From: a virus
Direction: 5' to 3' (one strand)
IMG/VR virus record: IMGVR_UViG_3300045988_144754
DNA length: 64,000 nucleotides
The notes under the pieces were generated by a model. The model was not told the origin of the DNA, did not search any database, and saw only the letters and a list, made by a program, of their open reading frames with translations. Positions 3,814 to 52,051 of this stretch are shown in pieces; the first letter of the stretch is position 1; each line of letters begins with the position of its first letter. Both the position numbers and the translations under genes were made by a program.

Positions 3814-4062
3814 CTAAGACATTTTTTTCTCTACGATAGCTGTCACATCAGACACAAGTTGTAAGTCTTTTGCCTCTTCGGGCGAAATCTTGATATGGAA
3901 CATGGTTTCGGTCTGAAGAACGAGATCGAGAAAGTCGATAGACTCAAGAGCGAGATCATCACGCAGGTTGGAGCTGTCGGTCACTTCTGCTGTCGATGCC
4001 CAAGGTGTGCGCAGGCCTTCAACTATATTGAACACCCGCTGGCGAATATCTTCTTTGTTCAT
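3814..4062 (-). CDS. acpP: acyl carrier protein
   Basis: 82 aa. The motif DDLALESIDFLDLVL matches the ACP phosphopantetheine-attachment region (DLGADSLDTVELVM). Its start overlaps the KAS stop (ATGA). Confidence 0.7.
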   Translation of the reverse strand: MNKEDIRQRVFNIVEGLRTPWASTAEVTDSSNLRDDLALESIDFLDLVLQTETMFHIKISPEEAKDLQLVSDVTAIVEKKMS

Positions 4063-5273
4063 AATGATTGGAATTTAGAAATGATGAATGATGAATTGGT
4101 GCCTCCGAAGCCAAAGGCATTACAAAGAATATGGTGTGATAAGTACTCGCGTGACTGCATGACGAGATTGAGCTGTGGAAAAGCATTCTCGGCTGTGGTA
4201 GCCGCACCGAAGATAGTGTCTGTGTTGAGCATCATGGCGGCTTGAACGGCCTGCGATACACCAGCCATCCAGCACTCGTGACCCGTCATACCCTTGGTGG
4301 CTACGATATAAGGGCTCTCGGGGAACACCTTTCCGATGGCTTCTGCCTCTGCAGCATCGCCCTGCTCCGTACCTGTGGCATGGGCGAGGAGTACATCTAT
4401 CATTCCGGCATCGAGTCCAGCCGACTCTATGGCCTTAATCATTGCCACCTCTTCCTGATAAGCATCCGGGGTACAGATGCTTGTGCCGTTAGTGGAAAAG
4501 CCGTAGCCTGAAAGTTCTGCCACGGGCGAGACTTCATAATCCTCGAAACGCAAGCTGTCGGAAGGCTCAAGAATAACACAGGCTGCACCACCCGAAGGAG
4601 CAAGACCATTGCGGGCTTTGCCGAAAGGCTGCACCTTGTCGGGCGAGAAAACGCCCATGGCATCAAACGACAGCATGGAGAAGGGACCAGTCTCCTGTGC
4701 TCCAACGACAATCACCATGTCGGTTTGGCGCGCATCAAGAAGCATCTTGGCAAGACCGATGGCATGACCTCCTCCGGCACAAGCCCCGCTGACGGTAAGC
4801 GAGAGTCCTTTCAGTCCGTAGATAGAGGCGAGGCTCATGCTGACGGTGGAATTGAGTGTGCGGAACACTGCACCTGCCCCTAAACGTCGGGTGTCGCGCT
4901 GTGTAATGGCAGTGGTCATTGCCTGATAGTTGTCTCCCGCCGTAGAGTCGTTGCTGACGATGACCGATACATTGTGAGACTGCAAGAACTCGGGAAGAAT
5001 ATTGGCTTCCACCAGAGCCTCGTTGACGGCAGATAAGGAATATAGGGTCGGTTCGGAAAGACATTGCCGTTGACCCCTGGTGAGTTTTGAAAACTTCCAA
5101 GGGTTCGGATCATTTATCTTTCCGCACAGGTCGGACTGATAACCTTTCTCGCTGCGCGCGGGGTCGTGGTGCAGACCGCACTCTCCATACGCCAGCTTCT
5201 GTGCGACGGAAAAGGTATCGTTGCCAAGACTGGAAACAATACCTGTGCCTGTGATTAATATTTTTCTATCCAT
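4059..5273 (-). CDS. beta-ketoacyl-ACP synthase (FabF/FabB-like KAS)
   Basis: Active-site region GACAGGGHAIG, His motifs HATGTEQGD and KGMTGHECWMAG, and C-terminal NAFGFGGTNSSFII all match KAS I/II. I trimmed the start to the internal Met (MDRKILITGTGIVSSLGN), because the upstream extension overlaps the preceding gene. Confidence 0.8.
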   Translation of the reverse strand: MDRKILITGTGIVSSLGNDTFSVAQKLAYGECGLHHDPARSEKGYQSDLCGKINDPNPWKFSKLTRGQRQCLSEPTLYSLSAVNEALVEANILPEFLQSHNVSVIVSNDSTAGDNYQAMTTAITQRDTRRLGAGAVFRTLNSTVSMSLASIYGLKGLSLTVSGACAGGGHAIGLAKMLLDARQTDMVIVVGAQETGPFSMLSFDAMGVFSPDKVQPFGKARNGLAPSGGAACVILEPSDSLRFEDYEVSPVAELSGYGFSTNGTSICTPDAYQEEVAMIKAIESAGLDAGMIDVLLAHATGTEQGDAAEAEAIGKVFPESPYIVATKGMTGHECWMAGVSQAVQAAMMLNTDTIFGAATTAENAFPQLNLVMQSREYLSHHILCNAFGFGGTNSSFIISKFQSL

Positions 5274-5302
5274 GATTATGTTTGTTTGATTAAAGAATAC
5301 TC

Positions 5303-8116
5303 TTACAAGGCATAGACGGTCAGTTCTACCTCTCCAATGCCTTCCTTGGCCGTGATAGTTGTATTCACCTTGTCGATAAGACATTTCACACCTCCGATGT
5401 TCCACCACGTCTTCCAGTGGTTAGGTATGTCGGCTATCTGTGCGACAGAAGCCGAACAGCGGATGATGTACTTCTTGCGGTTAAGCAGGAAATAGGCGTA
5501 GGGCAGAATGAAGGTATCGAAAAGACCGCGTGAGCGTATCTTGGTTATCACATTGCCGTTAGTGTCCACCTCGTCGGGGGCGCAGAGTGAAACATCCTTA
5601 TATTCAGGCTTACTGAGCCATGACGGCTCTTTGAAAGCACGTATCTTGAGCGAGAAACGTTCACCTTTGCCTCTGCCTTCCTGAATACCATTATAGTCGA
5701 AGACATTGCCCATCATGTCAATAGAGTCGCAAGCAAGAGCATATTCGCCTGCTGCCGTGCGCCACTTGGAAGTACCGAAGTGGTCGTAGTTATAGTCATA
5801 GGGCTCTGTAGTTGCATTCGTACCGCCGCCTCGCATCATGGCCAAGGCAAAGCCCCATCGTGAATCGTCTTGAAGAGGCGAGTTGCCGTCTTCGGTGTTT
5901 GACGGGTCGTAACTTTCGACGAGTTTCAGAGACTGCTGCATGTAGAAATCGCAGAAAGGCGAGGAGATGGTCTGGTTGATGATTTGCTCGACAAACTCAT
6001 GCTCCATGTCCTCATCGACATAGGCGCAGAGGATAGGCTGTCCTTCCTTGATAACGACACCATAGGTTGTTGTCTTTGAATCGTCATAGTACTTTGCCGT
6101 ATGAGAGCCGTAAGCAGCCTCTATCTCCTTGAAATAGTTGACATCATTGAACGGCACGGGGGTGAAGTCGATGGTGATGTCGTGGATGAAGTCTTCATTC
6201 TCCTCGCTGCAATCGCCATACTCCACACCCTTGTACTGGCCTACCTCGAAAAGTACAGGTTTGAGGTCGGCTGTAGTAGTGGCGTCGCCATTCACCTTCA
6301 CGCGATAGGCATTGCCCGTCTTCGGGTCGATGTAGCATCTTTTATCGCCAGAACTTAAATTATGAAAGAAGTCAACGTAATCTCGATCGTAAACCGTTTC
6401 GTTGTCTCCACTTCCCGGTTCGGGATAGTCGATATAGTCGTAGTCGGTAGCATAGCCCATATTTTTATTCTTGCGGCTGTCCTTGACGTTCTGCTGCTGA
6501 TCCTTGGCATCGCTCTCTTCGGAGTATCGCATACGTACACCCGTTATCTTCTCGCTGACGGGAATGATAGAATGAATGTCTGCGCGGAACGTGAGTGCTG
6601 GCTGTCCACTCTCGCGAAGCACGTCACGGATGAGGTAGGCCGTGACTTTCTTTTGCTCATAGTCGTAGGAGAACTTGATGCCAAAGGCGCTCTCCAAAGA
6701 TGAGATAATCGTGCTGACACTCTCATCAGGAAAGTTGTCGCTGTTGGCCACCATATAGAGCACGTTGGCCTGCACGTTGAACTTAGAGATTTGCGCCTCG
6801 ATGCTGATACCTGTCACCTTGCCGCCCTCTTTTGTCGTCTCTCCCACCTGTATGTGTTCGGAAGTTCCTTCGTTAGTGGTAAGGGTGAGCTCGTTGACCG
6901 TCTTGTCCTCTGCCTTTACGATGTTGATTTTTCCACCACAACCGCGCGACTCCAACCAGGAGTTGATATGATCTTGCTTCTTGAAATAACCTTCCTTAAT
7001 CTCGCCTTCCTTCTTTTTCTTGGCGATGACTTCGGGGTCGTCCTTCTTGTAGTATGTTCCGTGATGTGGATGCTCTTTGGTATCGTAGGCGCAAACGGTG
7101 GTGAAGAAACAGAGGTGCTTCATATCCTCTATCTGCATCAGTGCCGACTTGTCGAAGGTGACACCCAAGTGAGCAAACAGGCAGTCGAGAAAATAGAGTA
7201 CATAGAAACAAATGCCCGACTGCGGACGGCGTGCGTCCAACACCCAATAGGGATAAAGATCTTCGTTAGTCCACTTGCAATCCTTTGTGCTGATAATGTC
7301 GCTCGATGTGGTGCCATCGTCTGCCAGTCCGTGGTGCTTGTAGCAGATACGGGCATTGCAATAGGCTGCGGGACGGCCTGCGCCATCAGTCTCGCCATAG
7401 GCTGCCGATGTGTTGATATAGTCGCCATTCTTGGCGATGGCGGGCTCGTTGACTGTATTGCCGTTGGGGTAGGATCGTGACGACTTTCTCTTGGCATCGG
7501 CCTTCATGTGTAAAGGAGAAAGAATGTTGGTGGTGTACTCCTGGCACGATGCAGGATAGGAGAAGCCAAGAGCCTGCGGTTCGAGCACTTTACTCACGCT
7601 TACGTGCTCGGCATGAATGGTTCGGGTGACAGTCTCATCATCCTTATGCTTACCTCCCTCCACGAATACACTGACATTTACAACAGGGTCGCTCTCGATG
7701 TCTACCCTTACATTGCCTATCTTCTCGCCGATGATCAATTCATCCTTGATGGGGATGTCACGGCAGTTTAGCGAACCGATGAGGTCGCTGAAACTCTGTC
7801 TGCCTGCATTAATACTCATAGAGAGCGAGTCTTTTATCTCTTCAGCATCCTGCATGACGAGCGTACCGTTGCGGAAGGGCAGTCCGTCGGCATGAATGCG
7901 CGTAGGCAAATGCTCCATGTTGACAGCACGAAACGATGCCCGCACGTCATCGATGTTCTTTACCAGCCATCGGTTGCCGTCGAGCGGAATGGAAAACGGA
8001 TAGGCGAACATCTCGTTGTCATTGAACACAGGGTTCTGGTCCTCTATATCGATAGAGAAATCATCGGGCAGCGACACGGGGCGGTCGTTGATAAGTATGG
8101 TGAGATGTGAGTTCAT
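5303..8116 (-). CDS. large virion structural protein (tail or baseplate candidate)
   Basis: 937-aa ORF in the structural operon upstream of the ACP/KAS pair. No recognisable motif. Confidence 0.45.
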   Translation of the reverse strand: MNSHLTILINDRPVSLPDDFSIDIEDQNPVFNDNEMFAYPFSIPLDGNRWLVKNIDDVRASFRAVNMEHLPTRIHADGLPFRNGTLVMQDAEEIKDSLSMSINAGRQSFSDLIGSLNCRDIPIKDELIIGEKIGNVRVDIESDPVVNVSVFVEGGKHKDDETVTRTIHAEHVSVSKVLEPQALGFSYPASCQEYTTNILSPLHMKADAKRKSSRSYPNGNTVNEPAIAKNGDYINTSAAYGETDGAGRPAAYCNARICYKHHGLADDGTTSSDIISTKDCKWTNEDLYPYWVLDARRPQSGICFYVLYFLDCLFAHLGVTFDKSALMQIEDMKHLCFFTTVCAYDTKEHPHHGTYYKKDDPEVIAKKKKEGEIKEGYFKKQDHINSWLESRGCGGKINIVKAEDKTVNELTLTTNEGTSEHIQVGETTKEGGKVTGISIEAQISKFNVQANVLYMVANSDNFPDESVSTIISSLESAFGIKFSYDYEQKKVTAYLIRDVLRESGQPALTFRADIHSIIPVSEKITGVRMRYSEESDAKDQQQNVKDSRKNKNMGYATDYDYIDYPEPGSGDNETVYDRDYVDFFHNLSSGDKRCYIDPKTGNAYRVKVNGDATTTADLKPVLFEVGQYKGVEYGDCSEENEDFIHDITIDFTPVPFNDVNYFKEIEAAYGSHTAKYYDDSKTTTYGVVIKEGQPILCAYVDEDMEHEFVEQIINQTISSPFCDFYMQQSLKLVESYDPSNTEDGNSPLQDDSRWGFALAMMRGGGTNATTEPYDYNYDHFGTSKWRTAAGEYALACDSIDMMGNVFDYNGIQEGRGKGERFSLKIRAFKEPSWLSKPEYKDVSLCAPDEVDTNGNVITKIRSRGLFDTFILPYAYFLLNRKKYIIRCSASVAQIADIPNHWKTWWNIGGVKCLIDKVNTTITAKEGIGEVELTVYAL

Positions 8117-8781
8117 TGTTTCTTGATATTTACTTGAGCGTTGTCGTATATAGAGATAAACTGACGGGTGAAGGAGTTGACGACGGCATTACCGAAAGCA
8201 TAAATAGCTCTGTGCCCATGGTCGGTGAGTGTGCCTGCCGTGATGTTGACCACCGACATGTCATAACACTCGGCAGAGGCATTGGTGGTCAGTCGGGACT
8301 GGTTGCGTGCCACGGCGTGACCTTCCTTGACGGTGGCCCGTGAGAAGTCGCGCAACTCTACATGGCAGTCGGGATTCATAACCAGGGCAGAGGCAATGTT
8401 GTGCAGCACGACACGGGCGTTGCCCAGGATATAGGCCGTGTGGGCATGATAGAGGTGGATGGTCTCTGTGCTGTCGCCGATGAGCACATTGCCCGTAGGC
8501 GAGTCCTCGTTGTAGAAGATGCCGGCAGCATTTATCTCATTCTTATAGTCAGGATAGAAGTCCCGAAAAGCTGCCATGACCTGCTGTGGCACTTCGGTTA
8601 TCATGCCGTGCCAATACTTGTGCCACGCAGCGCACATCTGCTGTATGCTCTCCGTGCCACGGAAAGCAAGTTGCGACTCCTGGCAGTTGCCGCTCTGGGC
8701 AAGGATGGCGATACACAATGCCTTAAACTTTTCGGACTTCTCCATATCCTGACTCTTCTCTATTATCGAATTTCCAGTCAT
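8113..8781 (-). CDS. hypothetical protein
   Basis: 222-aa ORF with a 4-nt overlap to the downstream gene. Confidence 0.45.
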   Translation of the reverse strand: MTGNSIIEKSQDMEKSEKFKALCIAILAQSGNCQESQLAFRGTESIQQMCAAWHKYWHGMITEVPQQVMAAFRDFYPDYKNEINAAGIFYNEDSPTGNVLIGDSTETIHLYHAHTAYILGNARVVLHNIASALVMNPDCHVELRDFSRATVKEGHAVARNQSRLTTNASAECYDMSVVNITAGTLTDHGHRAIYAFGNAVVNSFTRQFISIYDNAQVNIKKQ

Positions 8782-8818
8782 TTCTGACTAAAATAAGCAC
8801 TAAAAACAAAACGACATC

Positions 8819-9895
8819 TTAGACTCCCGCTTCGGCGATGGTCTTGGTAAGGATGGCCTCGTAGCCGGTGAGTTCGTCTTCGGTTACGATGTCGGCATAC
8901 TCCTGGCGCAAACGGTCGATACGCTCCTTCAGTCCCTTAACCCTTGCCTTGGTACTTGGCTTGTCCTTGCGGATGATATACTTGATGATGGCATCAGCTT
9001 CGGCCTTGTGCTTGGCTGCCTTGTCGCGTGCGGCTTTCACCTCTGGGCGGTCGGCTGCGATTTTCTCTGCTATGCTGACGGCAAAGCGAGGATCACGCCC
9101 TTGTGCTTTCTCATAGAAGGGCTTGAGCTGGGTACGCAGTTCCTGTGGCGACAAACTGAAAGTCTTTTCCACATAAGCGATGTATTCAGGATCGCCATTG
9201 CGCTGATTCAATCGGAGATACACTTCGCCCATTTCACGGTCCACTGCCATGTAAATATCGGGCAGGATTTGGCTCTCTATCTCTGTGGCGCGGGTGGCGA
9301 GCAGCGCTATCTCGGCTTCAGTGTAGAGGATGCCCTTGTTCTGCTGTTTCGACTTCTCGTTGGCTTCTGCCATCGTCTTGGCTTGTTCGGCCTTGCTTGC
9401 CATCTCGTTGCGGAGGTCACGCACGGTATTGACGCGCTGTTGAAGGGCAGGACTGAGGAAGGGACGTATCTGTGCGAGGTTGGGCATGGTGGCGGCGATG
9501 CTCTCGCCGTTGGGGTTGGCCACAATGCCGCCGTAGGTGAGTGGCTGTACGGCCACGTTGGGCTTTATCTCGGGAAAGAGCGACTGGCGGGCTTCGTCGA
9601 GGGCTTTCTGCTTCTGCTGTTCGTTGTATCGTTCCTGCTCCTCCTTGGTGGGTCGGCCCACGTGGCGCTTGGCTTCGGTGGTGGCGGGTATGGGAATAAT
9701 CTGCAGACTGGTGATCAACTGGCGCACACGGCGGTGGTAGTCACGAAAACGATGTGAGTCGCGCACGAAAGCCTGTGCGCTGGGCACGCTTTCGAGCAGT
9801 GTCAGTCCCTGCTCGAAGGCTTCTTTCTGTTCGGCTGTCAACATTCGGGTGTTGAGTGCCGGCGTGAGTATCTGGATGATTTGCTCTTTGTTCAT
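8819..9895 (-). CDS. hypothetical protein
   Basis: 358-aa ORF in the same operon. Confidence 0.45.
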   Translation of the reverse strand: MNKEQIIQILTPALNTRMLTAEQKEAFEQGLTLLESVPSAQAFVRDSHRFRDYHRRVRQLITSLQIIPIPATTEAKRHVGRPTKEEQERYNEQQKQKALDEARQSLFPEIKPNVAVQPLTYGGIVANPNGESIAATMPNLAQIRPFLSPALQQRVNTVRDLRNEMASKAEQAKTMAEANEKSKQQNKGILYTEAEIALLATRATEIESQILPDIYMAVDREMGEVYLRLNQRNGDPEYIAYVEKTFSLSPQELRTQLKPFYEKAQGRDPRFAVSIAEKIAADRPEVKAARDKAAKHKAEADAIIKYIIRKDKPSTKARVKGLKERIDRLRQEYADIVTEDELTGYEAILTKTIAEAGV

Positions 9896-9925
9896 ATTGT
9901 TGTGTCTTTTATTGTTGTCGGGGTT

Positions 9926-11029
9926 TTAGAACATGAGTGGTGTGACGAATATCTTGCCGCCCTCCTGGTTGTTCTCGTAGCCGCCGGATTTGTCTGCAGC
10001 GGATGATGAGGGAGCGGTGGTGGAAGTGGAGGAGGACGCGGTGGTGTCGGCGGCTTCCTGAGCCTGCTTCTCGGCCTTGAGGAGGCGATAGACGGAATCG
10101 CGGAGCGAGATGGACTCGTTGTGCGCCAACAGTCGGGTAGCCTTGTCGAAGGAGATGACGGTGGTTCGCTCCACGAGGTAGGCAGTCATCAGTCGGCGCA
10201 CCTTGCGGAGGAGCTTGTCGCGGTCATCGGCGTGCTGCAGACGGGTGATGAGCTCGTCGCCGAACACGTCGGCTATGTATTCGTCCTGTATGTAGCGGAG
10301 GTCGGGCAACAGACGGATGAACTTGTCGCGGTTGTCGTAAACGTCGAGGTACTGCTGCAGGATGCTGCACGTGGGGATGAGGAGGTCGTGGTGCAGATAG
10401 TAGTACTTGCTCTCCTGCCACAACAGCACGATCTCCTCGATAGCTGCGAGGCGCTCGGTACTTTCGTCCTGTGGTATGTCGGATTTTCCGTCGTCAGGTA
10501 CTTCTGTACTTTCGTCCTTTGGTACTTCAGTACTTGCGCTGCCGTCTTTCGGGGCGGCTGTTTCGGCTGGCGTGTTGATGCTGACAGCCCAGTTTTCGAG
10601 AAGTATGAGGAGGTTGTTGAGCGACACCATGGCCTCTTTTTTATATCCCGCCACTCCCTTGTCGAGAAGTTTCTCTGTGGCTGGGTCATAGTCGGTAGAG
10701 GAGGCGATGTTGACGCCTGCGCCGTTGACCGAAAGGATTTGCTGGTAGGCGTATCGTGCCATAGCATCGTTGACCACCATACGCTGTGCGAGGACGAGGA
10801 GGACGCTCCATGGCTTCATGACATAGGTGCCGTCGGTCATCTGCTGATAGAAGCCGTCGCCGCCCAGGGTGGTGTAGTATTCGCAGAGCCGTGTGTAGAG
10901 CGGCTTACCCAACTTATCCTGCAGGAAGTCCTTCTCGCTGTTGTCGAGCACGCCCTGCAGGTTGGCTATCTCGTCCACGGCATTGCTGGGCAGGATGAGC
11001 CGGAGTTCTTGATTGGTGGAAAGTATCAT
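9926..11029 (-). CDS. hypothetical protein
   Basis: 367-aa ORF with an acidic Asp/Glu/Ser-rich middle region. Confidence 0.45.
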   Translation of the reverse strand: MILSTNQELRLILPSNAVDEIANLQGVLDNSEKDFLQDKLGKPLYTRLCEYYTTLGGDGFYQQMTDGTYVMKPWSVLLVLAQRMVVNDAMARYAYQQILSVNGAGVNIASSTDYDPATEKLLDKGVAGYKKEAMVSLNNLLILLENWAVSINTPAETAAPKDGSASTEVPKDESTEVPDDGKSDIPQDESTERLAAIEEIVLLWQESKYYYLHHDLLIPTCSILQQYLDVYDNRDKFIRLLPDLRYIQDEYIADVFGDELITRLQHADDRDKLLRKVRRLMTAYLVERTTVISFDKATRLLAHNESISLRDSVYRLLKAEKQAQEAADTTASSSTSTTAPSSSAADKSGGYENNQEGGKIFVTPLMF

Positions 11030-11100
11030 GATGTGTTGTGCTGTTATGTGCTGGGTGAAAAAAGATGTTGTTGCCAGGCGAAAGTCAGGGGAGGGGAGGG

Positions 11101-12894
11101 CTACTCCTGTCCCTGCTTCGTGACGCCTGTCTTCGAGTTGTCGAGGGTGGTAAGCACCTCACGGTCTATCTGCCATTCGAGGTGTGGGTCCCATTCATTG
11201 ATTTCGTCGGTTACCTCCAAGGCGCGGAGCATGAGCTGCTGCAATGGGGCAAACTGTATCTGCTTGACGAGGAAACGCTCGCGGAGGTCAGTGCCGCCCG
11301 ATGAGGTTGCGTCGCCTGGGGTGTTGCCAATGAGCTTGGAGTCGAGACCCATGGCGAAGAAGATGATGCTTGTGATTTCCTGCAGCTCGGTCTTCTCGGC
11401 TTGCGCTTGCGAGTTGGCCTTGCTCTCTATCTCCACAATCTCCCACGCCTTGTGCTCCTTGCCGTCGGTGCCGTTGAACACGGCAGAGATGAGCGCCTGA
11501 CCTGCATTGTCGGGATTGGAGAGCCACGTGTTGATGTCGCTGAACACCTCCTGCTGAAGCTGCGCCATGGTCTTGGTCTTCTTGTCGCCCTGCTGGGTGT
11601 AGAGGTTCTTGAGATATTCCTGGTGAATGTAGATGACGCGACCGATGATGTTGGAGTTGCGCTTACGGGTGAGTCGGTCGTCGACGATGGTGAAGGCATA
11701 CTCGTAGATGCTTCCGGCAAAGATGCTGTGCCAAAGGGCATCGGCATAGTAGGGACCGCCGTAGTCGCGTGGCGACATGATGAAACGGGTGGGGCGGTCC
11801 TTGCGGCTTACCCGCTGCTGACGGGCACGGCGCACGGCGGCCTGGAGGTCTTTCACTGCCGACACGGTGGGAAGATAGGGCACGGCGGCGATGCTCTTGT
11901 CGAGGTCGGCGAACTGAGCGGTGCGGTCTTGCGTGGGGTCGAGCCACTGGTTTGACAAGTAGGCATAGTTGATGCGATAGTTGGTGTCCTGTCGCTCCAG
12001 TCGGGTGGTGAAGATGCTGCGGTGTTTCAGTCCCACTACCTTGGGTGTCCACTGGCTTGTGGGCACGGGTTTGCCTTCGTCGGAGAGTTGTCGCTGGTTG
12101 AGTTGCAGCTCGACGAAGCATTGCGACATGAGCGCCATGTCGCCCGCCATGTTGAGGAAGGTCTGCATCAGGTCGTTGTCCTTCATGAATTTCTTCACCT
12201 CGCGGTTGGTCTGTTCCCACTTGGCGAGGGCGTCCTTCAGGGCTTTCATCTCGTCGCTGTCCTTGGGCTGGCCTTCGGTCTGCTGACTGACGGAATGCAG
12301 AGGGTCGTCGGGGTCGCCGCTGATGCCGTTCTGCTGTTGCTCCTGAAGGTCGGCTTTCTCCTGTGCCTTGAGGTCGGCTATCTGTCCGCGGAGCAGTGTG
12401 CCGGCCGATGCGTAGGGGATGTATTTCTCGGTGATGTTGCCGCCTACGTACTGGGTGTAGTGGTACTTGGGCGAGGGTCCGTGGCCTACGAGTATCTTCT
12501 TGATGAAGTCGACACCGGCTGCGGTGAAGGGCGACATTCGTGAGAGAATCCAGACGAGGTTGGGCAGTCGGTTGCCCACGCCCCATTCCATGTAGCCCAG
12601 TCCGGGTGTTCCCACGCCGTTGGGCTTGGCCTTGTTCTCGCCGCCGCTGGAGGCGAAGATGGTGGAAATCTGTCGTCGTGCTCCCGAAGAGGTGGTCGAG
12701 CTGCCCTGCGCTGTCATGCCGGCTGTCTCGAAGAGCATGGAGCGGACGTAATCGTTCCATGAAAAGACTTGAGCGCCGCTGTTGGGATTGATGAAAGCAG
12801 AGGGCGACACGGCCACATATCCATCGCGCTTCAGTTCCTCACTACGATCTTGGAACTGCTGTAAGTTGGTAACTCTGTTCTTGTTGCGTGACAT
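11101..12894 (-). CDS. hypothetical virion protein (portal-sized; assignment uncertain)
   Basis: 597-aa ORF. Preceded by a TAnnTTTG promoter-like box in the duplicated module at 12925..13010. Confidence 0.4.
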   Translation of the reverse strand: MSRNKNRVTNLQQFQDRSEELKRDGYVAVSPSAFINPNSGAQVFSWNDYVRSMLFETAGMTAQGSSTTSSGARRQISTIFASSGGENKAKPNGVGTPGLGYMEWGVGNRLPNLVWILSRMSPFTAAGVDFIKKILVGHGPSPKYHYTQYVGGNITEKYIPYASAGTLLRGQIADLKAQEKADLQEQQQNGISGDPDDPLHSVSQQTEGQPKDSDEMKALKDALAKWEQTNREVKKFMKDNDLMQTFLNMAGDMALMSQCFVELQLNQRQLSDEGKPVPTSQWTPKVVGLKHRSIFTTRLERQDTNYRINYAYLSNQWLDPTQDRTAQFADLDKSIAAVPYLPTVSAVKDLQAAVRRARQQRVSRKDRPTRFIMSPRDYGGPYYADALWHSIFAGSIYEYAFTIVDDRLTRKRNSNIIGRVIYIHQEYLKNLYTQQGDKKTKTMAQLQQEVFSDINTWLSNPDNAGQALISAVFNGTDGKEHKAWEIVEIESKANSQAQAEKTELQEITSIIFFAMGLDSKLIGNTPGDATSSGGTDLRERFLVKQIQFAPLQQLMLRALEVTDEINEWDPHLEWQIDREVLTTLDNSKTGVTKQGQE

Positions 12895-12924
12895 ATTCTG
12901 TTATCCTTTTTTAGGGTTAATATA

Positions 12925-13010
12925 TGTTGTTGCTTTTTTCGACTACAAAAGTAGGGAGAATTATTTTAATGGTACGGACATGAGTCAGAACAGCGAGAGC
13001 TGCACGGCTC
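12925..13010 (-). repeat. duplicated promoter module carrying a 3' relic of a PF01555-type methyltransferase gene (copy of 14822..14905)
   Basis: About 80% identity to the 3' end plus downstream region of 14877..15647. Encodes ...AVQLSLF* (compare AQLTLF*). Contains TACTTTTG, a TAnnTTTG -7 box. Confidence 0.55.
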
Positions 13011-13246
13011 GGTTGCCTCTTTCGGCGTACCGCGTCTGAGCGAAAAAACTGCGGTCCCGTCGGTTCTCCCTTCCCTTTTCCGCCCACTTCATAGAATTGG
13101 AAAGTTCGAGAGTGTTGGTAGTCTTCGGGAATGGAGCCGTGCGAGCCGCAGTTAATCTAACAATATGTTTCACGTTTTTGCATTATGGCCTATATCAAGA
13201 TGTATTCGGGGTGTCGTGTTGCGTCCGCCTACATATCGTAGTCGTA

Positions 13247-14065
13247 CTATCGTTTGATATTCCACATGTGCTCTGCAGGACCAACGAGCACGTCTATGTT
13301 TGCGCCCTGCTTCAGAGCCACCGTTTCCACCCATTTAAGCTGAATAAACTGCTGCGGGCTAAGATTCATCTCGCTCATATACGCCTTATCTGCCACAGCC
13401 TTTTGGCGCTCGGCCTTCTCGCGAGCCACCTGAACCTCATATTCACGTTCCTGCGTCTGCTTGGCCTGTACCATCTTTGCCGTTCGGTTCATTTCGGCAA
13501 GCTGCTCCTTGTTGGGTGTTGCCTTGCCGATGATAACGTCCTTGATGATGACGGGCATCGGCTTGTGCTTGGAGAGGGCAGCCACGTAATCCTGCATCTG
13601 CTTCAGAATCTTCTTGTCGATGGTGCTCAATACCTGACGGTTGGACATCAAGTCGAACGGACTGTACTGTGAGATATGGTCTCTGACAAGATTACAGAAA
13701 TAGTTGTAGAGGTTGGTGTCAAACCAGTCGCGTCCATAGTTCTGCAACAGCACGGGCGACTTGCCTTGCTCCACCTGAGTGACTATGACAGAATGGAAGT
13801 CGAGCGGCGTGTTATCGTCGGAGAAGATGTCGTCAAGAACAACCTCGTGGCGTACCGGAACAATCTTGAATGTTTCGGCATGAGTACTCAGGGCACACCA
13901 TGTCAAGCCACTCTGTACTGGGTCGTTGTCAACACCTCCGTGTCCGAAGAACCATGGTTTCTTCACCAACACGGTTTCCTCGTCGGCATCGGGCGACACA
14001 AAACGGCACGAGGATAACATCACTACTGCGACAAGCGCAAAAAGAATTGAAAATAATTTTTTCAT
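13247..14065 (-). CDS. lipoprotein
   Basis: Start trimmed to MKKLFSILFALVAVVMLSSC. This is a signal peptide with an LSSC lipobox. Confidence 0.55.
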   Translation of the reverse strand: MKKLFSILFALVAVVMLSSCRFVSPDADEETVLVKKPWFFGHGGVDNDPVQSGLTWCALSTHAETFKIVPVRHEVVLDDIFSDDNTPLDFHSVIVTQVEQGKSPVLLQNYGRDWFDTNLYNYFCNLVRDHISQYSPFDLMSNRQVLSTIDKKILKQMQDYVAALSKHKPMPVIIKDVIIGKATPNKEQLAEMNRTAKMVQAKQTQEREYEVQVAREKAERQKAVADKAYMSEMNLSPQQFIQLKWVETVALKQGANIDVLVGPAEHMWNIKR

Positions 14066-14135: not shown

Positions 14136-14690
14136 TTACGACTCAATCTCGGGAGGGTTGCCACCAGGCTTCTGCTCGCCGCCACCCGTGGTGCCGGAAT
14201 CGCCTGTGCCGGGAGCTGCGGGAGCATCCGTTGCAGCAGCATTGCCCACTCGCTTGAACGAGCCGTGCTGTGCGAAGGCAGCGTTGAACTTCTTGGAGAA
14301 GTCGATGGCAACACCTGCGGTGAGGTCCTTTGTGGTGAGGTCGGCGGCGGTAATCTCTCGGTTCACGTCAACGTCCTCGCCTGCTGCCTTACGTGCTTCG
14401 AGCTTCGCCTTGAGCTGGCTCTGAGTGAGCGAGCCGCTGACGGTAGGACGTACCGTCATGCCCTCGGCAGACACCTGTACCTTGGTGCCCAGTGCCAACA
14501 GAAGCGGCAGCTTTTTCTCCAACTGCGTCATCACGGCCATTACGTCCGCTGCGCCTACTGTAGAGTCCTGCGCCATGTAGTCGCAAAACTCAGGAAATGA
14601 CATCTGCTGCAAGTCAACGATCTGTGCGCTTGCCAGCTTCTCCTGTGTGAGGTGGTTCACACGAACTGCAATTCTTGTTTTAATTGCCAT
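14136..14690 (-). CDS. HU-like DNA-binding protein (Bacteroidetes type)
   Basis: N-terminus MAIKTRIAVRVNHLTQEKLA...FPEFCDYMAQDSTVGAADVMAVMTQLEKKLPLLLALGTKVQV resembles Bacteroidetes HU-family proteins. Low-complexity Gly/Thr-rich tail. Confidence 0.5.
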   Translation of the reverse strand: MAIKTRIAVRVNHLTQEKLASAQIVDLQQMSFPEFCDYMAQDSTVGAADVMAVMTQLEKKLPLLLALGTKVQVSAEGMTVRPTVSGSLTQSQLKAKLEARKAAGEDVDVNREITAADLTTKDLTAGVAIDFSKKFNAAFAQHGSFKRVGNAAATDAPAAPGTGDSGTTGGGEQKPGGNPPEIES

Positions 14691-14762
14691 AGGTTATTTT
14701 TTGTTTGGGCGTTAATACTTTCCTCTCTATTTTTACCCGATTCTACAAAGAGGCTTTTTGCA

Positions 14763-14822
14763 ATGTGCTAACACTTTTCATCAAATGTGCTAACACTTTT
14801 CGTCAAATGTGCTAACACATTG
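14763..14822 (-). promoter_or_regulatory. three tandem 22-bp sites AATGTGctaaCAC (GTG-N4-CAC inverted-repeat cores)
   Basis: Three units at exact 22-bp spacing in the 5' leader of the operon starting at 14690. Same site family as 40356..40437. Confidence 0.5.
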
Positions 14823-14905
14823 CTTTTTTTCGACTACAAATGTAGGGAGAAAATTTTGAGCGGTGTGGACATAAATTCAGAACAGCGTGAGCTGTGCTTG
14901 CTCCA
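14822..14905 (-). promoter_or_regulatory. promoter module downstream of the methyltransferase gene (TACATTTG -7 box)
   Basis: Matches the Bacteroidetes TAnnTTTG consensus. Duplicated at 12925..13010. Confidence 0.45.
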
Positions 14906-15647
14906 ACTTGATGCGCTTGCAAGCCTTGTCGTAATACTCCTTGTTGAGCTCGAAGCCGATGAAGTTGCGCTTCTCTTTTATGCAAGCAATGGCGGTGGTG
15001 CCGCTGCCCATGCAGTTGTCTAATATGGTGTCGCCCTCGTTGGAGTAGGTACGGATGAGGTACTGGATGAGAGCGACAGGTTTTTGGGTGGGGTGGAAGC
15101 TGTTGTGAATATCCCTCTGAAATAAGACAATATCGGTTGGATATTTTTCGTCGGTTATAATATCCTTCACTTTGCCATAATTTCCGTAACATCTGTTGGT
15201 TTGCTCTTTCTCTTGCTTTCCTCTGCTGTGATTGCGTTCATGTGGAAGACATTTGCACATTTGTGGATGATAGGTGGGCTGTCCGTCGTAGAAAACGGAA
15301 ATAATCTCCGTTTGCTTTAGAGGCATCTTCTTTGTGTTCAAAAAGCCAGTTGTACGGCATTTATCCCACGTGATATTATAGCGCCACATCTTTTCATTGC
15401 TCATCATCAGTTTTGCCGTGAACATACCCTGTCCGAACAATATTATAGCCGCATTGGGCTTACTGATACGAAGATATTGCTCCCATAAAGAATCAAGTGG
15501 AATAATACTATCCCATCCTCCTCCTTCGCTCTGCTTATTGAGGACACCATACGGCAAATCACACACAATGCAATCCACGCTTCCGTCGGGAATCCTTTTC
15601 ATTCCTTCGAGGCAGTCTTCATTATATATCTTGTTCAGCTCTATCAT
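14877..15647 (-). CDS. DNA methyltransferase, N6-adenine/N4-cytosine (PF01555-like, beta class)
   Basis: CIVCDLPYG (DPPY-type motif IV) near the N-terminus and NCMGSGTTAIA (motif I) near the C-terminus. Paralog of 42701..43450. Confidence 0.8.
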   Translation of the reverse strand: MIELNKIYNEDCLEGMKRIPDGSVDCIVCDLPYGVLNKQSEGGGWDSIIPLDSLWEQYLRISKPNAAIILFGQGMFTAKLMMSNEKMWRYNITWDKCRTTGFLNTKKMPLKQTEIISVFYDGQPTYHPQMCKCLPHERNHSRGKQEKEQTNRCYGNYGKVKDIITDEKYPTDIVLFQRDIHNSFHPTQKPVALIQYLIRTYSNEGDTILDNCMGSGTTAIACIKEKRNFIGFELNKEYYDKACKRIKLEQAQLTLF

Positions 15648-16704: not shown

Positions 16705-16895
16705 AGTTTTTATCCCAAAAATGCCAAAATTGGACTATTTTAGTACAGAAAAAATCTAAAATTGTACGATTTTATCCAAAAAACGACAAAATTAGACTAT
16801 TTTCGTACAGAAAAAAATCCAAAATTGGACTATTTTATCCCAAAAACGCCAAAATTGGACTATTTTTAATCCAGAAAAATCCAAAAATGGATGGG
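16705..16895. repeat. tandem array of about six 30-bp units (three ~60-bp units)
   Basis: ccaaaaatgccaaaattggactatttt is repeated with minor variation. Sits between the endolysin stop and the next gene start. Confidence 0.7.
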
Positions 16896-17464: not shown

Positions 17465-17776
17465 AGTTTATCGTTTTCTTGTTCTGTTGTTAATAAATGT
17501 AGGGCAAAGATACGAAAACGCCATCCGTCGTGCGGGACAAAAATATCCCAGCTACTTTGTATGACAGACTGCGCACCGGGTTGACGCAGCCGGAAACAAT
17601 GGAAGCCGCAATGCTGCACTCTTCGTGGAGCAAAGCGGCTTCTGAAACGAAATGTTATCCCGAAAAGGCAAGACTACCATTTTGCTGACACCAGCAAAAT
17701 GATATTCGGCTCTTTTTACCTTTTTACTTTTTTGTCTTAGAAATCAGCAAGAAAACTCTTTTTACCTTTTTACTTT

Positions 17777-18280
17777 TCAAACATGGCTCATGTATTCCCA
17801 TACTTTCGTACAGTCGAGTACATCTGTGTCCTTCCAGTCGGCATCACAGAAGTAGAACAAGTATGCGGCCTTGATAATCTCCTCTTCGCTCATCTCGGCG
17901 CAGAGGTCAGCATACATGGCATTGAAGGCTACATACTTGTCCCAACAATTCACCTTGCTTGGGAAGTCGAAGTCCTTGGTGGCTTGCTCAATCTCCGATT
18001 TAGTCCAGTGAGCGCCCCTGCCCATAGGCACACCCTCATCGTCCAACTTGCTGTAGAGAAGTCGGTCGACATCATGATGGGCAAACATCTCGCTGTAGTG
18101 GCGGTCGTAGAGCACGGCATGTTGGTGACGGATTATCTTCCAGTAAAGTTCAGGATCCTCATTCTCCACCTTCATCAGGTCGCACGACAACTGCTCCAAG
18201 GCAGCATTGAGTTTTTTGTCTGTCATCTGTCCGTCAACACGGGCCTGGTTGATTAATTGATTGTACTTCATGATTTTCAT
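17777..18280 (-). CDS. hypothetical protein
   Basis: 167-aa ORF between the holin-like and endolysin genes. Confidence 0.45.
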   Translation of the reverse strand: MKIMKYNQLINQARVDGQMTDKKLNAALEQLSCDLMKVENEDPELYWKIIRHQHAVLYDRHYSEMFAHHDVDRLLYSKLDDEGVPMGRGAHWTKSEIEQATKDFDFPSKVNCWDKYVAFNAMYADLCAEMSEEEIIKAAYLFYFCDADWKDTDVLDCTKVWEYMSHV

Positions 18281-20376: not shown

Positions 20377-21285
20377 TTATCGCATGGCTTCCTCAAGAGT
20401 TCTAATATAAGGTATGGACTCGTTGCGCACAATATCAAGAAAAAGTTGTGCCGACCGCTTCATCGGCACGTCCTTCATCCAGTGGACATTGCTCATCAGG
20501 TCGTGCTCAAGCCCCACGATGGGACGGACGGTAAGGGTAGGGTGGTTCTTTAGGTACAATTTAGGCATGAAAGTGACACAATGGGATTCTTCCACGATGG
20601 CAAGGTCCTCGTTGGGGTCGCTCACAATACATTTTACATTCAGTTTCATAAAATCGTATTTCAGATATTTCTGAAAGGTATTGAACACCCTTTCGCCTAC
20701 ATCGGGCATAATCACGTTGTGCCTTAACAAATCCTCGTATGACACCTTTTCCAGTCGGGACAAAGGATGGGTGTCCCGCATCATCGCATAGATACGGAAA
20801 GGAATACAGGGCTCAGACTCGATGCCCTCATTCTTGTAGGCAGTGTTCAGAGTAAAGGCGAGGTCGAGGGAGTGGCTTCTCAACAGGTGGTTCAGACTCG
20901 TCGCCTTGGTAAACTCGGCGTTGATTCTTACATTCGGGTATCGTTCCATGAAGATAAGTGCCGCCATCCGAATATAAGGTGCGATAAAAGAGCCTACACC
21001 TATCCTCAGCTCGCCCACAAGGCAGTTGTTGAGCGCGTTGATTTGTTCCTTGCAGTCGTCCGTCTGCTTCAGTATCTCCTTGGCGCGAGGCAAAAGCGCC
21101 TCGCCACTCTCAGTGAGCATAATGCTGTGCGAGGTGCGGATAAGCAACTTGCACCTCAGTTCATCCTCAAGAGCCTTGATGTGTTGACTGATGGCGGACT
21201 GAGTGACACAACAGCGCATGGCTGCAATACTGAACGATAAAGTTTCGGCTACATATACAAATGAGCGCAAATGACGAAGTTCCAT
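20377..21285 (-). CDS. LysR-family transcriptional regulator
   Basis: N-terminal HTH MELRHLRSFVYVAETLSFSIAA...QSAISQHIKALEDELRCKLLIRTSHSIMLTESGEALL is a canonical LysR substrate-binding-type regulator. 302 aa. Confidence 0.8.
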   Translation of the reverse strand: MELRHLRSFVYVAETLSFSIAAMRCCVTQSAISQHIKALEDELRCKLLIRTSHSIMLTESGEALLPRAKEILKQTDDCKEQINALNNCLVGELRIGVGSFIAPYIRMAALIFMERYPNVRINAEFTKATSLNHLLRSHSLDLAFTLNTAYKNEGIESEPCIPFRIYAMMRDTHPLSRLEKVSYEDLLRHNVIMPDVGERVFNTFQKYLKYDFMKLNVKCIVSDPNEDLAIVEESHCVTFMPKLYLKNHPTLTVRPIVGLEHDLMSNVHWMKDVPMKRSAQLFLDIVRNESIPYIRTLEEAMR

Positions 21286-26863: not shown

Positions 26864-26911
26864 GTTTTTTTATGTTTACTTTTACCTATAAATCAGCAAG
26901 AAAGTCTTTTT

Positions 26912-27898
26912 TTACCTTTTTACCTTTTTACTTTTTTTACCTTTACTTCTATGATAGTACAACAGAATAATATCTGTTACTCTAAAACAATAGTTGGCAG
27001 GATCTTTATCCGCTGTGACCATACATCCCGCCTCTTTCATCACCTTGTCGAGCCTTTCTGTCTGACTGGGCGATAAAGCTTTGACAAGCGATAAAGCATC
27101 TATATACGTTCCTCCACTTTCCGTATGCTTGATAAATTCCTTATCAAAATGGGTTTCATTGTAAAAAAACAGGTTAAGGGCTTCTACCATCTGCTCTGCA
27201 GAGTAGACTGGAAGCTGGGGTGTCAGTTTACGAAGATTTTTGCTGTAGGTGGTCAGACGCTTATTCAGATAGTCGTCGATGCTGTCAGAATAGTCGAAAT
27301 AAAGCTGCGCTTTGGGAGTGTTGTCATTTTCACCTGCAACAGACTTATAAAAGCCGCGAAGTTGCTGTATCATTTTAAGAACACCGTCAAACTGATGGAA
27401 CTCAGTAGTATTACCGAAGACTGCATACATATTCGACCTGACATCCTTCACGACACATTCCAGCATGTCAGAAAGAAACGCTACCTTATCAAGGTTGAGT
27501 GACAATGTATCTACTTTCTCTTGCATACCATCCTGAGAATAATCTACAAAATATCTCAGTAGAGTACCAAAGGAGAAAAAGTCGAAGGTAACGTTAGAAC
27601 GAACATTCGCCAACACAACGGAGGAATACATCGTATAAGCCAGCTCTAAATCGCGCTTCTGTATCTGCTTCACCAAATTTTGAATCTCTGAAGAACCTTG
27701 CTTCAACCTACTTGCCACCTTCGCGAGGTTATTGCGTTTCGTCATCAACTCATTAAAGTCAGGATCACGAAAGAGTAGGTCAAGCGACTCGGTATATTTC
27801 TCCAAAGGTACGTCTTTGAAGTTAATGTAATAAATGGTAGGCTGCGCATAGATGGCATCTATGCGCTTTGCCTCTTGTTGCTTTTTGCTTTTGCCCAT
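26912..27898 (-). CDS. hypothetical protein
   Basis: 328-aa ORF. Confidence 0.4.
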   Translation of the reverse strand: MGKSKKQQEAKRIDAIYAQPTIYYINFKDVPLEKYTESLDLLFRDPDFNELMTKRNNLAKVASRLKQGSSEIQNLVKQIQKRDLELAYTMYSSVVLANVRSNVTFDFFSFGTLLRYFVDYSQDGMQEKVDTLSLNLDKVAFLSDMLECVVKDVRSNMYAVFGNTTEFHQFDGVLKMIQQLRGFYKSVAGENDNTPKAQLYFDYSDSIDDYLNKRLTTYSKNLRKLTPQLPVYSAEQMVEALNLFFYNETHFDKEFIKHTESGGTYIDALSLVKALSPSQTERLDKVMKEAGCMVTADKDPANYCFRVTDIILLYYHRSKGKKSKKVKR

Positions 27899-39467: not shown

Positions 39468-40274
39468 ATGAGTCAGATAACACAAGGCACATTGGCACGC
39501 ATCGACAAATGGTTGGCGCAAGGCATCAGTATCGAGACGATGTTCCCGAACCTGGAGCAGCGCTATCGTATGCAGATATGTGCGGAATATTACAAAAGGT
39601 GGGTGCAGAACAAGGACATCGACCCTCGTACCACCTGTCGCAACATTGCCCGACGTGACTACGAGTTGTTCATCAACCAAGCCGCACAGGGCAACAAGGA
39701 GGCTGTGGCGATGATTCAGGCTCTGGGCATCACGGTGGACGATGAGGGTAATGTGAAAAATCGCACCATCACGGAGCTCAACAACGACGTGGCGGTGTGC
39801 AATCATATCATCCGCTTCTTCACCACCGACGAGAGTCCGCGCCACAAGGCCATGTACCTCAATTCGGCAGAATGGTTGATACGCACGGGCAAACAGCAGA
39901 ACAACGACCGTGCCGTGGATAAGGGTATGCAGGCCTTGGCCAACATATACGGCAACTTCATCGAGGAGAAGGATGCTACGGACGAGATGCCGGACATGAG
40001 TCGCATTGCCATCACGCAGGACGTGAGCATCGTAAAGCGCGACCGCATCAACTACACTGAGGAGGAGAAGCTGCGTCTGGCCCGCAAGTATGGTCTTACG
40101 GCAAAGGATATGCGGGATATAGCCGAAGAGGAATCCCTGCAGGCTGTAGGCAAAGACACTGAGCCGGACTACTTCGAGTACATGGAGCAGAAGGACGAGG
40201 AGGATGTGATTAGACACGGGTACATGAAAGAAAGCGAATTGACGGATTCGGAAAAGACGGATGATGCGGAATGA
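39468..40274 (+). CDS. hypothetical protein with acidic C-terminus
   Basis: 268-aa ORF. It is more protein-like than the longer antisense ORF 39285..40412. Confidence 0.45.
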   Translation: MSQITQGTLARIDKWLAQGISIETMFPNLEQRYRMQICAEYYKRWVQNKDIDPRTTCRNIARRDYELFINQAAQGNKEAVAMIQALGITVDDEGNVKNRTITELNNDVAVCNHIIRFFTTDESPRHKAMYLNSAEWLIRTGKQQNNDRAVDKGMQALANIYGNFIEEKDATDEMPDMSRIAITQDVSIVKRDRINYTEEEKLRLARKYGLTAKDMRDIAEEESLQAVGKDTEPDYFEYMEQKDEEDVIRHGYMKESELTDSEKTDDAE

Positions 40275-40355
40275 GTGAAAATGAAACAGAAGTATCTGTT
40301 TGATGCAAACAATGGGCATCGTTTGATATAAACAATGGGCATCGTTTGAAAAGCG

Positions 40356-40437
40356 AATGTGCCGACACATTAAAACGAAGGTGTTAGCACTTTTTGCCAA
40401 AAGTGTTAGCACATTTTACCAAAAGTGTTAGCACATG
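40356..40437 (+). promoter_or_regulatory. four GTG-N4-CAC inverted-repeat sites at about 23-bp spacing
   Basis: aATGTGccgaCACATt, then three GTGttagCAC units, upstream of the PAPS-reductase-family gene. Confidence 0.5.
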
Positions 40438-40540
40438 GGAAAAACGGAGGTTCGGCTGATTTCGCCAAAAGAGTCGAACCTCGGCAAATATATAGTGCAT
40501 AAATGCGCTATAAAAACACTATAAAAAGACTATAAAAAAT

Positions 40541-41749: not shown

Positions 41750-42031
41750 ATGATAACAATAAAAATCAAGACATGGAAGGACTGGAAGAAGGACTTCATC
41801 GATTGGGTAAAGGAGCCAGGGCGCAAGACGTGCAAGGAGTATGTGGACTATATGGAGGCTTTACAAAAACAGACTCTCTACCAAATAATAGAGGACACTT
41901 GTGATAAATACAACAATATGCGTGAGGATCAAATCAAAGACATCACAGAAGCAGTAGAAAAATGCGTGGCTGCTTGTGCTGAAGAAACACGCAAGTTAAT
42001 CGATGAATGTCAGCCCGCAAAATTCTTCTAA
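41750..42031 (+). CDS. hypothetical protein
   Basis: 93-aa ORF. Confidence 0.35.
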   Translation: MITIKIKTWKDWKKDFIDWVKEPGRKTCKEYVDYMEALQKQTLYQIIEDTCDKYNNMREDQIKDITEAVEKCVAACAEETRKLIDECQPAKFF

Positions 42032-51538: not shown

Positions 51539-51667
51539 TCTATAAATCCTTTTATATTTAATTAGAAACCAAAGATACAACCTCCGACATATTTCTGAGC
51601 CATATAAACGGTCACAGGGATGCAACCATCATAGGCTTCTTTCGGGATAATTCTCAATTTCATGTCT

Positions 51668-51846
51668 TATTCAAATTTATATACTATATGCGGTGTGGTA
51701 TTGCCCAGTCCGTCGCGAGGGTCGGCAATACCTCTCCCGACCATTGTCGTCACAGCATTGGCTATCAGCTTGCGCGGTCGGTACTTTACGAGGCCCTTGC
51801 CGTCCTTGCCGGAACGTACCCATCCGATGTAATACTTGTCAATCAT
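51668..51846 (-). CDS. small repeat-borne ORF (MIDKYYIGWVRSGKDGKGLVKYRPRK...)
   Basis: 58-aa paralog of 49661..49783 inside repeat R1-prime. Confidence 0.35.
51678..51843. repeat. direct repeat R1-prime
   Basis: See 49607..49779. Confidence 0.7.
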
Positions 51847-52040: not shown

Positions 52041-52051
52041 TCCCCCCCCCC
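52041..52051. repeat. poly-C homopolymer tract (11 nt)
   Basis: tgtcccccccccccgttt, seen directly. Confidence 0.9.

Follow-up and report, generated by a model that had tools for sequence, protein, structure and literature searches.

The 64,000-nucleotide stretch of viral DNA analysed here (IMG/VR virus record IMGVR_UViG_3300045988_144754), which we call the window, carries three tandem palindromes in the leader of a gene encoding a protein of the HU-HIG family. In the order of transcription, which runs along the minus strand, an N6/N4 DNA methyltransferase gene (14877–15647) is followed by a promoter block, 15 nt, the three sites, a 71-nt leader and the ATG of the HU-HIG gene at 14690; genes for an SPFH protein and then a portal-like protein lie downstream. 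The promoter block is a conserved 29-nt sequence, TCTCCCTACATTTGTAGTCGAAAAAAAGC (14822–14850, minus strand), ending in TACATTTG, which forms a −7 box (14837–14844, minus strand) of the Bacteroidota sigma-A type as judged by motif alone. Because the Bacteroidota sigma-A consensus TAnnTTTG occupies positions −12 to −5 (PMC9723704), transcription is predicted to start near 14830–14832 on the minus strand, which would place the sites at approximately +11 to +70. The initial annotation, made from the sequence of the window, had located the array between such a box and the start of an HU-like gene, and this arrangement was borne out on the minus strand.

By reading the sequence, we found three copies of AATGTGCTAACAC at 14762, 14784 and 14806, with a spacing of exactly 22 bp. 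Tandem Repeats Finder reported the same array (14762–14818, period 22, 2.6 copies, 97% matches), confirming the triplet that had originally been noted at this spacing. The letters from 14762 to 14821 are aatgtgctaacacttttcatca, aatgtgctaacacttttcgtca and aatgtgctaacacatt. With its flanks, each unit is a 16-bp dyad, AATGTGYTARCACATT, an even palindrome whose axis falls between two bases and whose arms are AATGTG and CACATT. Site 1, the promoter-proximal copy (14806–14821, minus strand, at about +11 to +26), is AATGTGTTAGCACATT and has perfect 6-bp arms. Site 2 (14784–14799, minus strand) lies 22 bp from site 1 and has the sequence AAAGTGTTAGCACATT, which is also that of site 3 (14762–14777, minus strand), a further 22 bp away and 71 nt before the ATG. 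The spacers of the window units are TGACGAAAA, TGATGAAAA and TTRCCAAAA. The units had been described as TGTG/CACA arms around a 4-nt core; GTG-N4-CAC is indeed the element common to all copies, but strict TGTG/CACA arms are found in the promoter-proximal copy only. Allowing up to two mismatches, the 13-mer motif matched nine times in the window, compared with 1.6 matches expected, and 0 of 100 shuffles yielded nine matches. Eight of the nine matches cluster at 14762–14821 or 40356–40437, the sole outlier being at 42909, and both clusters fall within the approximately 12% of the window that has no same-strand open reading frame (ORF) cover. The motif occurs above chance frequency, and both clusters sit in intergenic leaders.

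The initial annotation had proposed a search of related genomes, and in related gut phage contigs we found such units in the same leader slot. These relatives are contigs of 50–110 kb from IMG/VR and ENA/Logan assemblies; source annotations make Prevotella the likely host of the phage family, and a similarity search against cultured phages returned no close relative, with methyltransferase fragments alone giving matches. The slot between the −7 box and the HU-HIG gene always holds one to three units with a spacing of 22–23 bp, and an array occupies it for every copy of the HU-HIG gene that we saw, behind three different promoter types. The core of the unit is lineage specific. We distinguished types A (GTGTTAGCAC; GTG-TTAG-CAC), B (GTGTCGGCAC; GTG-TCGG-CAC), E (GGTTCGAACC), F (GGGGATAGCCCC), F′ (GGGCTAGCCC), G (GTCGGCTGA) and G′ (GTTAGCTGA), and all seven are palindromic or half-palindromic. 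A further core pattern among the relatives is, in degenerate notation, GTYRGCTGA. Across the relatives, the number of units ranges from one (L017) to five or more. In seven relatives (L002, L006, L008, L009, L019, L020 and L205), the A-type array and promoter are kept and the HU-HIG gene either lacks its HU domain or is deleted as far as its terminator; the arrays in these genomes have two or three copies, some of them degenerate.

Over 6.5 kb around the slot, contig 134987 is approximately 94% identical to the window, but its three cores are all of type B rather than type A. The change from TTAG to TCGG replaces TA with CG at the dyad centre, symmetrically and in all three copies. A second pair of arrays, G′ and G, which is unrelated to A and B, also shows a TA/CG switch in all three units. 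In both pairs, the partners have the same unit flanks and leader, and their three units change together. Additionally, we observed inverted units inside arrays (unit 2 of L018, unit 1 of G and G′, and the unit at 40356 in the window). This pattern fits recognition of double-stranded DNA by symmetric dimers rather than a loop-specific RNA element. The earlier proposal of a dimeric regulator is supported in its general form, in that the dyad symmetry, the two-turn phasing, the dyad-symmetric change from TA to CG and the inverted units favour a sequence-specific dimeric DNA-binding protein; it is not supported as to LysR being that protein.

The gene directly downstream of the array (14136–14690, minus strand) encodes a 184-amino-acid protein that matches the HU-HIG family (Pfam PF18291) over residues 1–99 with 33.4 bits, above the gathering cutoff of 26.2; its match to TIGR01201 was weak. 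Variation in this protein is concentrated in a hypervariable patch at codons 5–23 (14622–14678, minus strand). In a sample of 121 sequences, consisting of the query and 120 homologues among the matches listed, entropy was 0.67 bit per site in residues 5–23 and 0.10 elsewhere, with peaks at residues 11, 13, 14 and 23, whereas the part aligned with the HU core and arms was invariant. These four residues covary with the core of the array. Val11 and His13-Leu14 accompany type A, Val11 and Asn13-Phe14 type B, Ser11 and Ser13-Ile14 types E and G, and Asp11 or Glu11 with His13-Leu14 types F, F′ and G′. In 26 of 26 distinct haplotypes, His13-Leu14 occurs with a TA centre (A, G′, F and F′) and Asn-Phe or Ser-Ile with a CG centre (B, G and E), and the A/B and G′/G sister pairs obey this rule independently of each other. 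Between types, the proportion of nonsynonymous differences (pN) was 0.07–0.14 in codons 5–23 and 0.005–0.03 in the rest of the gene; within types, pN in codons 5–23 was 0.023 despite synonymous divergence. For L324 (type A) and L327 (type B), differences in the patch are confined to codons 13, 14, 19 and 20, and the flanking codons are identical.

The site family had also been reported to recur 25 kb away in front of DNA-modification genes. We found a second triplet there (40381–40437), which leads into terminase genes as well. It consists of three GTGTTAGCAC sites at 40381, 40403 and 40425, each 22 bp apart (40378–40437, plus strand), which are on the opposite strand to array 1 but face the gene downstream of them in the same way as that array does. 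This array is part of a 267-bp intergenic region (40275–40540) that is periodic throughout. In order along the plus strand, the region contains 23-bp repeats of AACAATGGGCATC (type M; 40298–40349), detected by Tandem Repeats Finder; a B-type palindrome with a CG centre, AATGTGCCGACACATT (40356–40371), which heads the array; the array itself; further units of approximately 22–24 bp, GGTTCGGCTGA and GAGTCGAACC (40447–40483), which resemble G and E cores; and 2.8 copies of an AT-rich 11-bp repeat, CTATAAAAACA (40508–40538), abutting the start codon at 40541. Array 1 is followed by no such 11-mers. The units at 40447–40483 jointly form an inverted repeat, GGAGGTTCG...CGAACCTC, with a T run following on the minus strand, which resembles an intrinsic terminator for antisense transcription; alternatively, they may be two more G/E-type units. 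No clean TAnnTTTG box was found upstream of the second array.

In the relatives, this composite repeat region always lies directly 3′ of a gene of unassigned function (39468–40274, plus strand) whose 268-amino-acid product had no match in Pfam, PHROG, NCBIfam or PDB and no small-terminase signature, and whose predicted structure (pLDDT 58) gave no informative fold match. Downstream, a gene resembling 3′-phosphoadenosine 5′-phosphosulfate (PAPS) reductase (40541–41392, plus strand) is the first of an operon that runs through methyltransferases to a putative large terminase (43746–45740, plus strand), assigned by a weak PHROG match. A 93-amino-acid ORF at 41750–42031 gave faint RinA or sigma hints in PHROG and NCBIfam scans (E of about 0.02). 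The M unit of the window is also the unit of an array in L106 and L109, in which a different HU-like gene is preceded by three to four copies of the dyad GATGCCCATTGTT after a TAACTTTG box. As L341 and L347 show, the second locus can hold three intact copies of each of three types. In the A lineage, and to some extent in the B lineage, both slots have the cognate type; many relatives, including L025 and L055, have no array at the second slot.

The layout and the covariation suggest that the dimer of the HU-HIG protein encoded downstream binds the array as its cognate site, a reading to which we give a probability of roughly 0.5, and that the array is probably an autogenous operator of the HU-HIG gene. 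Under this reading, the three 16-bp units would be double-stranded DNA sites for one HU-HIG dimer each, and the 22-bp spacing, equal to two helical turns, would set all three on one face of the helix, where binding may be cooperative. Once enough HU-HIG protein had been made, three dimers would occupy the initial transcribed region and would hinder promoter escape or elongation, an effect of repression rather than activation by which a DNA-binding protein of the head-gene cluster would limit its own synthesis. Through the sites at 40.4 kb, the HU-HIG protein could also control the DNA-modification and terminase operon; alternatively, it may be loaded there. Specificity would be set by N-terminal residues 5–23, with residues 13–14 reading the dinucleotide at the dyad centre. 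A broader proposal, which we hold more tentatively and at somewhat less than even odds, is that phage HU-HIG proteins are programmable sequence-specific binders with residues 5–23 as a recognition module. Residues 13–14 would choose TA (His-Leu) or CG (Asn-Phe or Ser-Ile), residues 5–11 and 23 would choose the outer arms, and relatives would swap specificities much as lambdoid phages swap immunity, with matched arrays in their own leaders and a multi-specificity hub by the terminase operon.

Several observations weigh against binding of the array by the HU-HIG protein. Five relatives (L002, L006, L008, L009 and L205) retain A-type arrays in spite of a truncated or deleted HU-HIG gene. Several unit families (M, B, A, G-like and E-like) are combined at the second locus, and the window encodes one HU-HIG protein only, with no HU variant to match the families other than A. 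In genome 104445, the HU slot is occupied by an A array and the second slot by other cores, and a strict pattern scan of two E-type genomes detected no second E array. The array and codons 5–23 are approximately 110–200 bp apart, so that some association would be expected from co-inheritance alone; extra synonymous differences in several patches imply mosaic ancestry, and pN/pS (the ratio of nonsynonymous to synonymous differences) in the patch is below 1. PDB sequence searches with the protein gave no matches, and its AlphaFold model (pLDDT 36) was unusable because all of the retrieved homologues were more than 80% identical. Finally, Burroughs et al. (2017) considered HU-HIG proteins unlikely to be sequence-specific transcription factors (PMC5499826).

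We also considered other proteins as binders of the array. The initial annotation had named the LysR protein as a candidate. The window encodes a full-length LysR-type regulator (20377–21285, minus strand; HTH_1 and LysR_substrate domains) amid late genes. At least 119 related viral contigs share its gene at 75–100% identity; as a core gene of a phage family, it is unusual. LysR-type sites follow the pattern T-N11-A, an odd-length dyad. The even 16-bp dyad of the array does not have this form, and the specificity of LysR does not track the core: residues 1–100, including the helix-turn-helix, are identical in A genome 14943_26 and B genome 156455. LysR was rejected on these grounds. No other classical regulator was found in Pfam scans of approximately 60 ORFs, and the window contains no homologue of a ribbon-helix-helix protein, a lead that came from the inovirus-like elements L004 and L005 described below. 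Two coiled-coil paralogues (48969–49619 and 55929–56480) with a faint bZIP match gained no real support. Between A and B genomes, we found no swapped regulator cassette in the late region, which is collinear at 94–97% identity over 10.4–30.9 and 37.6–45.2 kb; the early region differs by several cassettes. One early-region cassette of the close relative L101 (15062–15859) contains a 265-amino-acid ORF that looks helix-turn-helix-like by eye alone, and the corresponding position in the window has a YopX gene and a gene for a 142-amino-acid protein, with no counterpart of the L101 ORF.

The sites could instead be operators for another, unrecognised dimeric regulator of phage or host origin, in which case the match to HU-HIG would reflect linkage disequilibrium between neighbouring polymorphisms. 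We regard this as unlikely, though it is the foremost of the alternatives. The position, symmetry and phasing of the sites would suit any dimeric DNA-binding protein, A arrays outlast an intact adjacent HU-HIG gene, and the second slot carries many core types whatever the HU type. Such a regulator could hide among the phage ORFs, most of which have no family assignment, or in the approximately 25–35 kb of genome that lies outside the window. However, none was found: LysR, the only classical factor among the scanned ORFs, does not covary with the core, and no gene is replaced between collinear A and B genomes. Linkage alone also leaves unexplained why TA/CG switches with His-Leu/non-His-Leu in two unrelated array families. 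Somewhat less probable again is that the arrays are sites of nucleoprotein assembly, either replication-origin iterons at two loci (as in oriL and oriR of SPP1 or ori and crr of P4) or a packaging region like lambda cosB, with HU-HIG possibly acting as a specificity or bending factor. Direct repeats phased at 22 bp are the classical iteron layout, and three such copies occur at both loci; many unrelated 22-bp arrays lie in plasmid- or phage-like contigs. The region at 40275–40540 is periodic, ends in AT-rich 11-mers and is placed 3′ of the conserved 268-amino-acid gene and upstream of the large-terminase operon. Its retention of three-unit sets of several specificities would suit an essential cis site better than a simple operator, and the HU-HIG gene itself lies within the head and portal cluster. 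Yet the primase-helicase and clamp genes, located past 64 kb beyond the right end of the window, have no such array, and the neighbours of the arrays (methyltransferase, HU-HIG, SPFH, portal-like and PAPS-reductase-like genes) include no adjacent initiator or replication module. The HU-slot array always lies within a leader between promoter and ATG and moves with the HU gene cassette, its copy number falls to one in L017, and the second-slot array is absent in L025 and L055. For packaging in particular, two loci 25.6 kb apart in opposite absolute orientation would be unusual for pac or cos, and the 268-amino-acid neighbour has no small-terminase signature.

An RNA element is improbable; under this reading, the tandem palindromes in the transcript would form a long hairpin in the 5′ leader, through which mRNA stability or HU-HIG translation would be controlled. 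The sites do lie downstream of the predicted transcription start, and folding scores were good (−37 kcal/mol and z of −5.2 for array 1; z of −6.7 for the 40.4-kb region), but such scores follow trivially from tandem palindromes, and an Rfam scan of the 64 kb gave 0 matches at the gathering score. The change from A to B would fall in the loop, yet it is dyad symmetric, and the inverted units (L018 unit 2 and G unit 1) would destroy the hairpin or alter its loop. Nor does a copy number that varies from one to five or more suit such an element, and the array units pair no better with their own coding patch than with foreign patches. Least probable of all is that the repeats are functionless, being either scars left by recombination or short selfish repeats where modules meet in a very mosaic phage family. 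The arrays do sit at cassette-exchange junctions, with different methyltransferases upstream and different HU genes downstream, and a duplicated methyltransferase 3′-end remnant and promoter are present at 12931–13010. Functionless repeats would nevertheless not account for units that are identical within an array and change in concert, for dyad symmetry that is kept through seven unrelated cores or for phasing fixed at 22–23 bp.

We compared the array and the proposed HU-HIG binder with known systems. The lambda OR1–OR3 sites bound by CI and Cro, and the sites of coliphage 186 CI at pR, are promoter-adjacent dyads that are bound by dimers, act autogenously and differ in specificity among relatives. 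The array resembles these operators in having several dyad sites next to a promoter, in the apparent swapping of specificity and in the proposed self-control. It differs in that all of its sites are downstream of the start (+11 to +70) and none covers the −35 and −10 elements, in its strict 22-bp spacing, in a proposed binder of the HU fold rather than a helix-turn-helix repressor, and in belonging to a gene of the late head cluster rather than an immunity region. Iterons (R6K, pPS10, RK2, P1 and lambda ori) comprise three to seven direct repeats of approximately 17–22 bp with 22-bp phasing, are lineage specific and matched to their binder, and are sometimes accompanied by a related inverted repeat as operator. 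The array shares their geometry of three direct repeats at 22-bp phasing, but has no adjacent initiator gene, occurs in late-gene leaders, is dispensable in many relatives and is made of units that are each palindromic. Ribbon-helix-helix systems (Arc/Mnt, omega of pSM19035 and ParR-parC) use an N-terminal beta-strand for specificity and bind as cooperative dimers to arrays of short repeats near their own promoter. The proposed N-terminal specificity residues and the repeat array near the gene's own promoter recall these systems, but the protein here matches the HU-HIG family, and we found no partition ATPase among the scanned ORFs.

IHF was also compared. The IHF consensus, WATCAANNNNTTR, is asymmetric, and it was absent from the units of the window. 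IHF sites are single and are read mainly by the beta-arms through DNA shape, whereas the sites here are even palindromes in phased arrays, and the variable, apparently specificity-setting residues are in the N-terminal extension (5–23), the arm region being invariant. IHF is nevertheless a case of sequence specificity within the HU/IHF superfamily (PDB 1IHF; see PMC5499826 and bioRxiv 10.1101/2024.06.24.600358), and a dimer of the HU fold on a defined DNA sequence is what we propose here. With the HU-HIG clade of Bacteroidota (PMC5499826; structure 4FMR), the protein shares a Pfam score above threshold, a glycine-rich C-terminal tail and rapid diversification. Burroughs et al. (2017) proposed a role for HU-HIG proteins in conflicts with mobile elements (PMC5499826); unlike in that account, the phage-borne member described here is preceded, in its own leader, by phased sites that match it. 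The array is not of the LysR-box, IHF-site or Rfam class, because the defining features of these classes were absent when tested. By analogy, its layout would work like the tandem autogenous operators of temperate phages, with a geometry like that of iterons.

Further features surround array 1. A second copy of the promoter block precedes the portal-like gene (12931–12959, minus strand; two matches in total against 0 expected) and is followed by no array. Because the same block stands there without it, the array is an add-on to one leader rather than part of the promoter. Between array 1 and the ATG, the leader contains an inverted repeat, CCTCTTTGT...ATAGAGAGG (14722–14753, minus strand; nine pairs and a 14-nt loop), that is kept in relatives of types A, B and F. 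At 12931–13010 on the minus strand, upstream of the portal-like gene, the promoter-block copy is joined to a remnant of a methyltransferase 3′ end (cagctctcgctgttctga), which suggests that the HU-HIG/SPFH cassette entered by recombination at this promoter. The methyltransferase gene upstream of array 1 (14877–15647, minus strand) has a paralogue at 42701–43450 on the plus strand, both of the N6/N4 type; the two are 62% identical overall, with nearly identical termini and diverged middles, as if a target-recognition region had been swapped. The head-gene block at 4000–14000 has a G+C content of 51–58%, compared with 40–47% elsewhere, and the change occurs close to array 1. The GC skew of this block runs opposite to that of other minus-strand blocks, and we left GC skew unused because it is confounded by gene strand and by this compositionally odd 4–14-kb block.

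Other repeats and small genes were observed in the window. Between the genes for a GH108 endolysin and a 344-amino-acid protein, 16708–16891 contains 5.6 copies of a 32-bp unit (or three of a 62-bp unit) with CCAAAATTGGACTA; this array is kept with five to seven copies in relatives L106, L107 and L109 and is probably a further regulatory array with a three-turn period. Runs of the 8-mers CTTTTTAC and TTTTTACC occupy two intergenic regions (17712–17777 and 26909–26948), and runs like these precede methyltransferase genes in L106, L109 and L073. A series of ORFs of 46–60 amino acids (51667–52604 and 54110–54262, minus strand) flanks a C5 cytosine methyltransferase gene (52780–54096). Several of these ORFs end in ILIEYD, ILIEYE or VIVIYE, a similar run is found in L101, and they may be split or spare target-recognition modules. 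A tRNA scan of the window found nothing.

Genome and metagenome scans for the A array recovered the relatives and, in addition, unrelated 22-bp arrays in Sulfitobacter, Planctomycetota and Aminicenantes. We rejected such non-relative arrays as true kin, the best explanation being that iteron-like arrays are so numerous that some share a 10-mer by chance. Most of the metagenome matches (L191–L270; WLWD01 and WLWI01 contigs) came from a satellite-like dispersed repeat, unrelated to the phage, that has many copies of GTGTTAGCAC per contig. Three inovirus-like elements of approximately 9.7 kb that encode a rolling-circle Rep and a Zot-like ATPase (L004, L005 and L228) contain three copies of GTGTTAGCAC, together with two degenerate copies in 11-bp phase, immediately in front of a gene for a 57-amino-acid ribbon-helix-helix-like protein. 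These elements are unrelated to the phage, and the 10-mer that they have in common with the window is probably a coincidence.

The expansion of HU-HIG proteins in gut Bacteroidota and their phages is one of the largest that lack an explanation, and the sole detailed analysis of these proteins judged them unlikely to be sequence-specific regulators (PMC5499826). For this clade, a site and a protein that match and switch together would be new. On offer here are an array of sites matched to a hypervariable patch, a rule relating two residues to two bases and a direct prediction that follows from it. If phage HU-HIG proteins are indeed programmable binders, the large and fast-diversifying expansion in Bacteroidota would acquire a concrete biochemical function. 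Should the second locus prove to serve packaging or loading, it would show how a phage nucleoid protein is targeted to its own genome. For an abundant, uncultured family of gut phages of approximately 85–105 kb, almost none of whose proteins can be assigned to known families, the array would provide a first handle on the control of gene expression.

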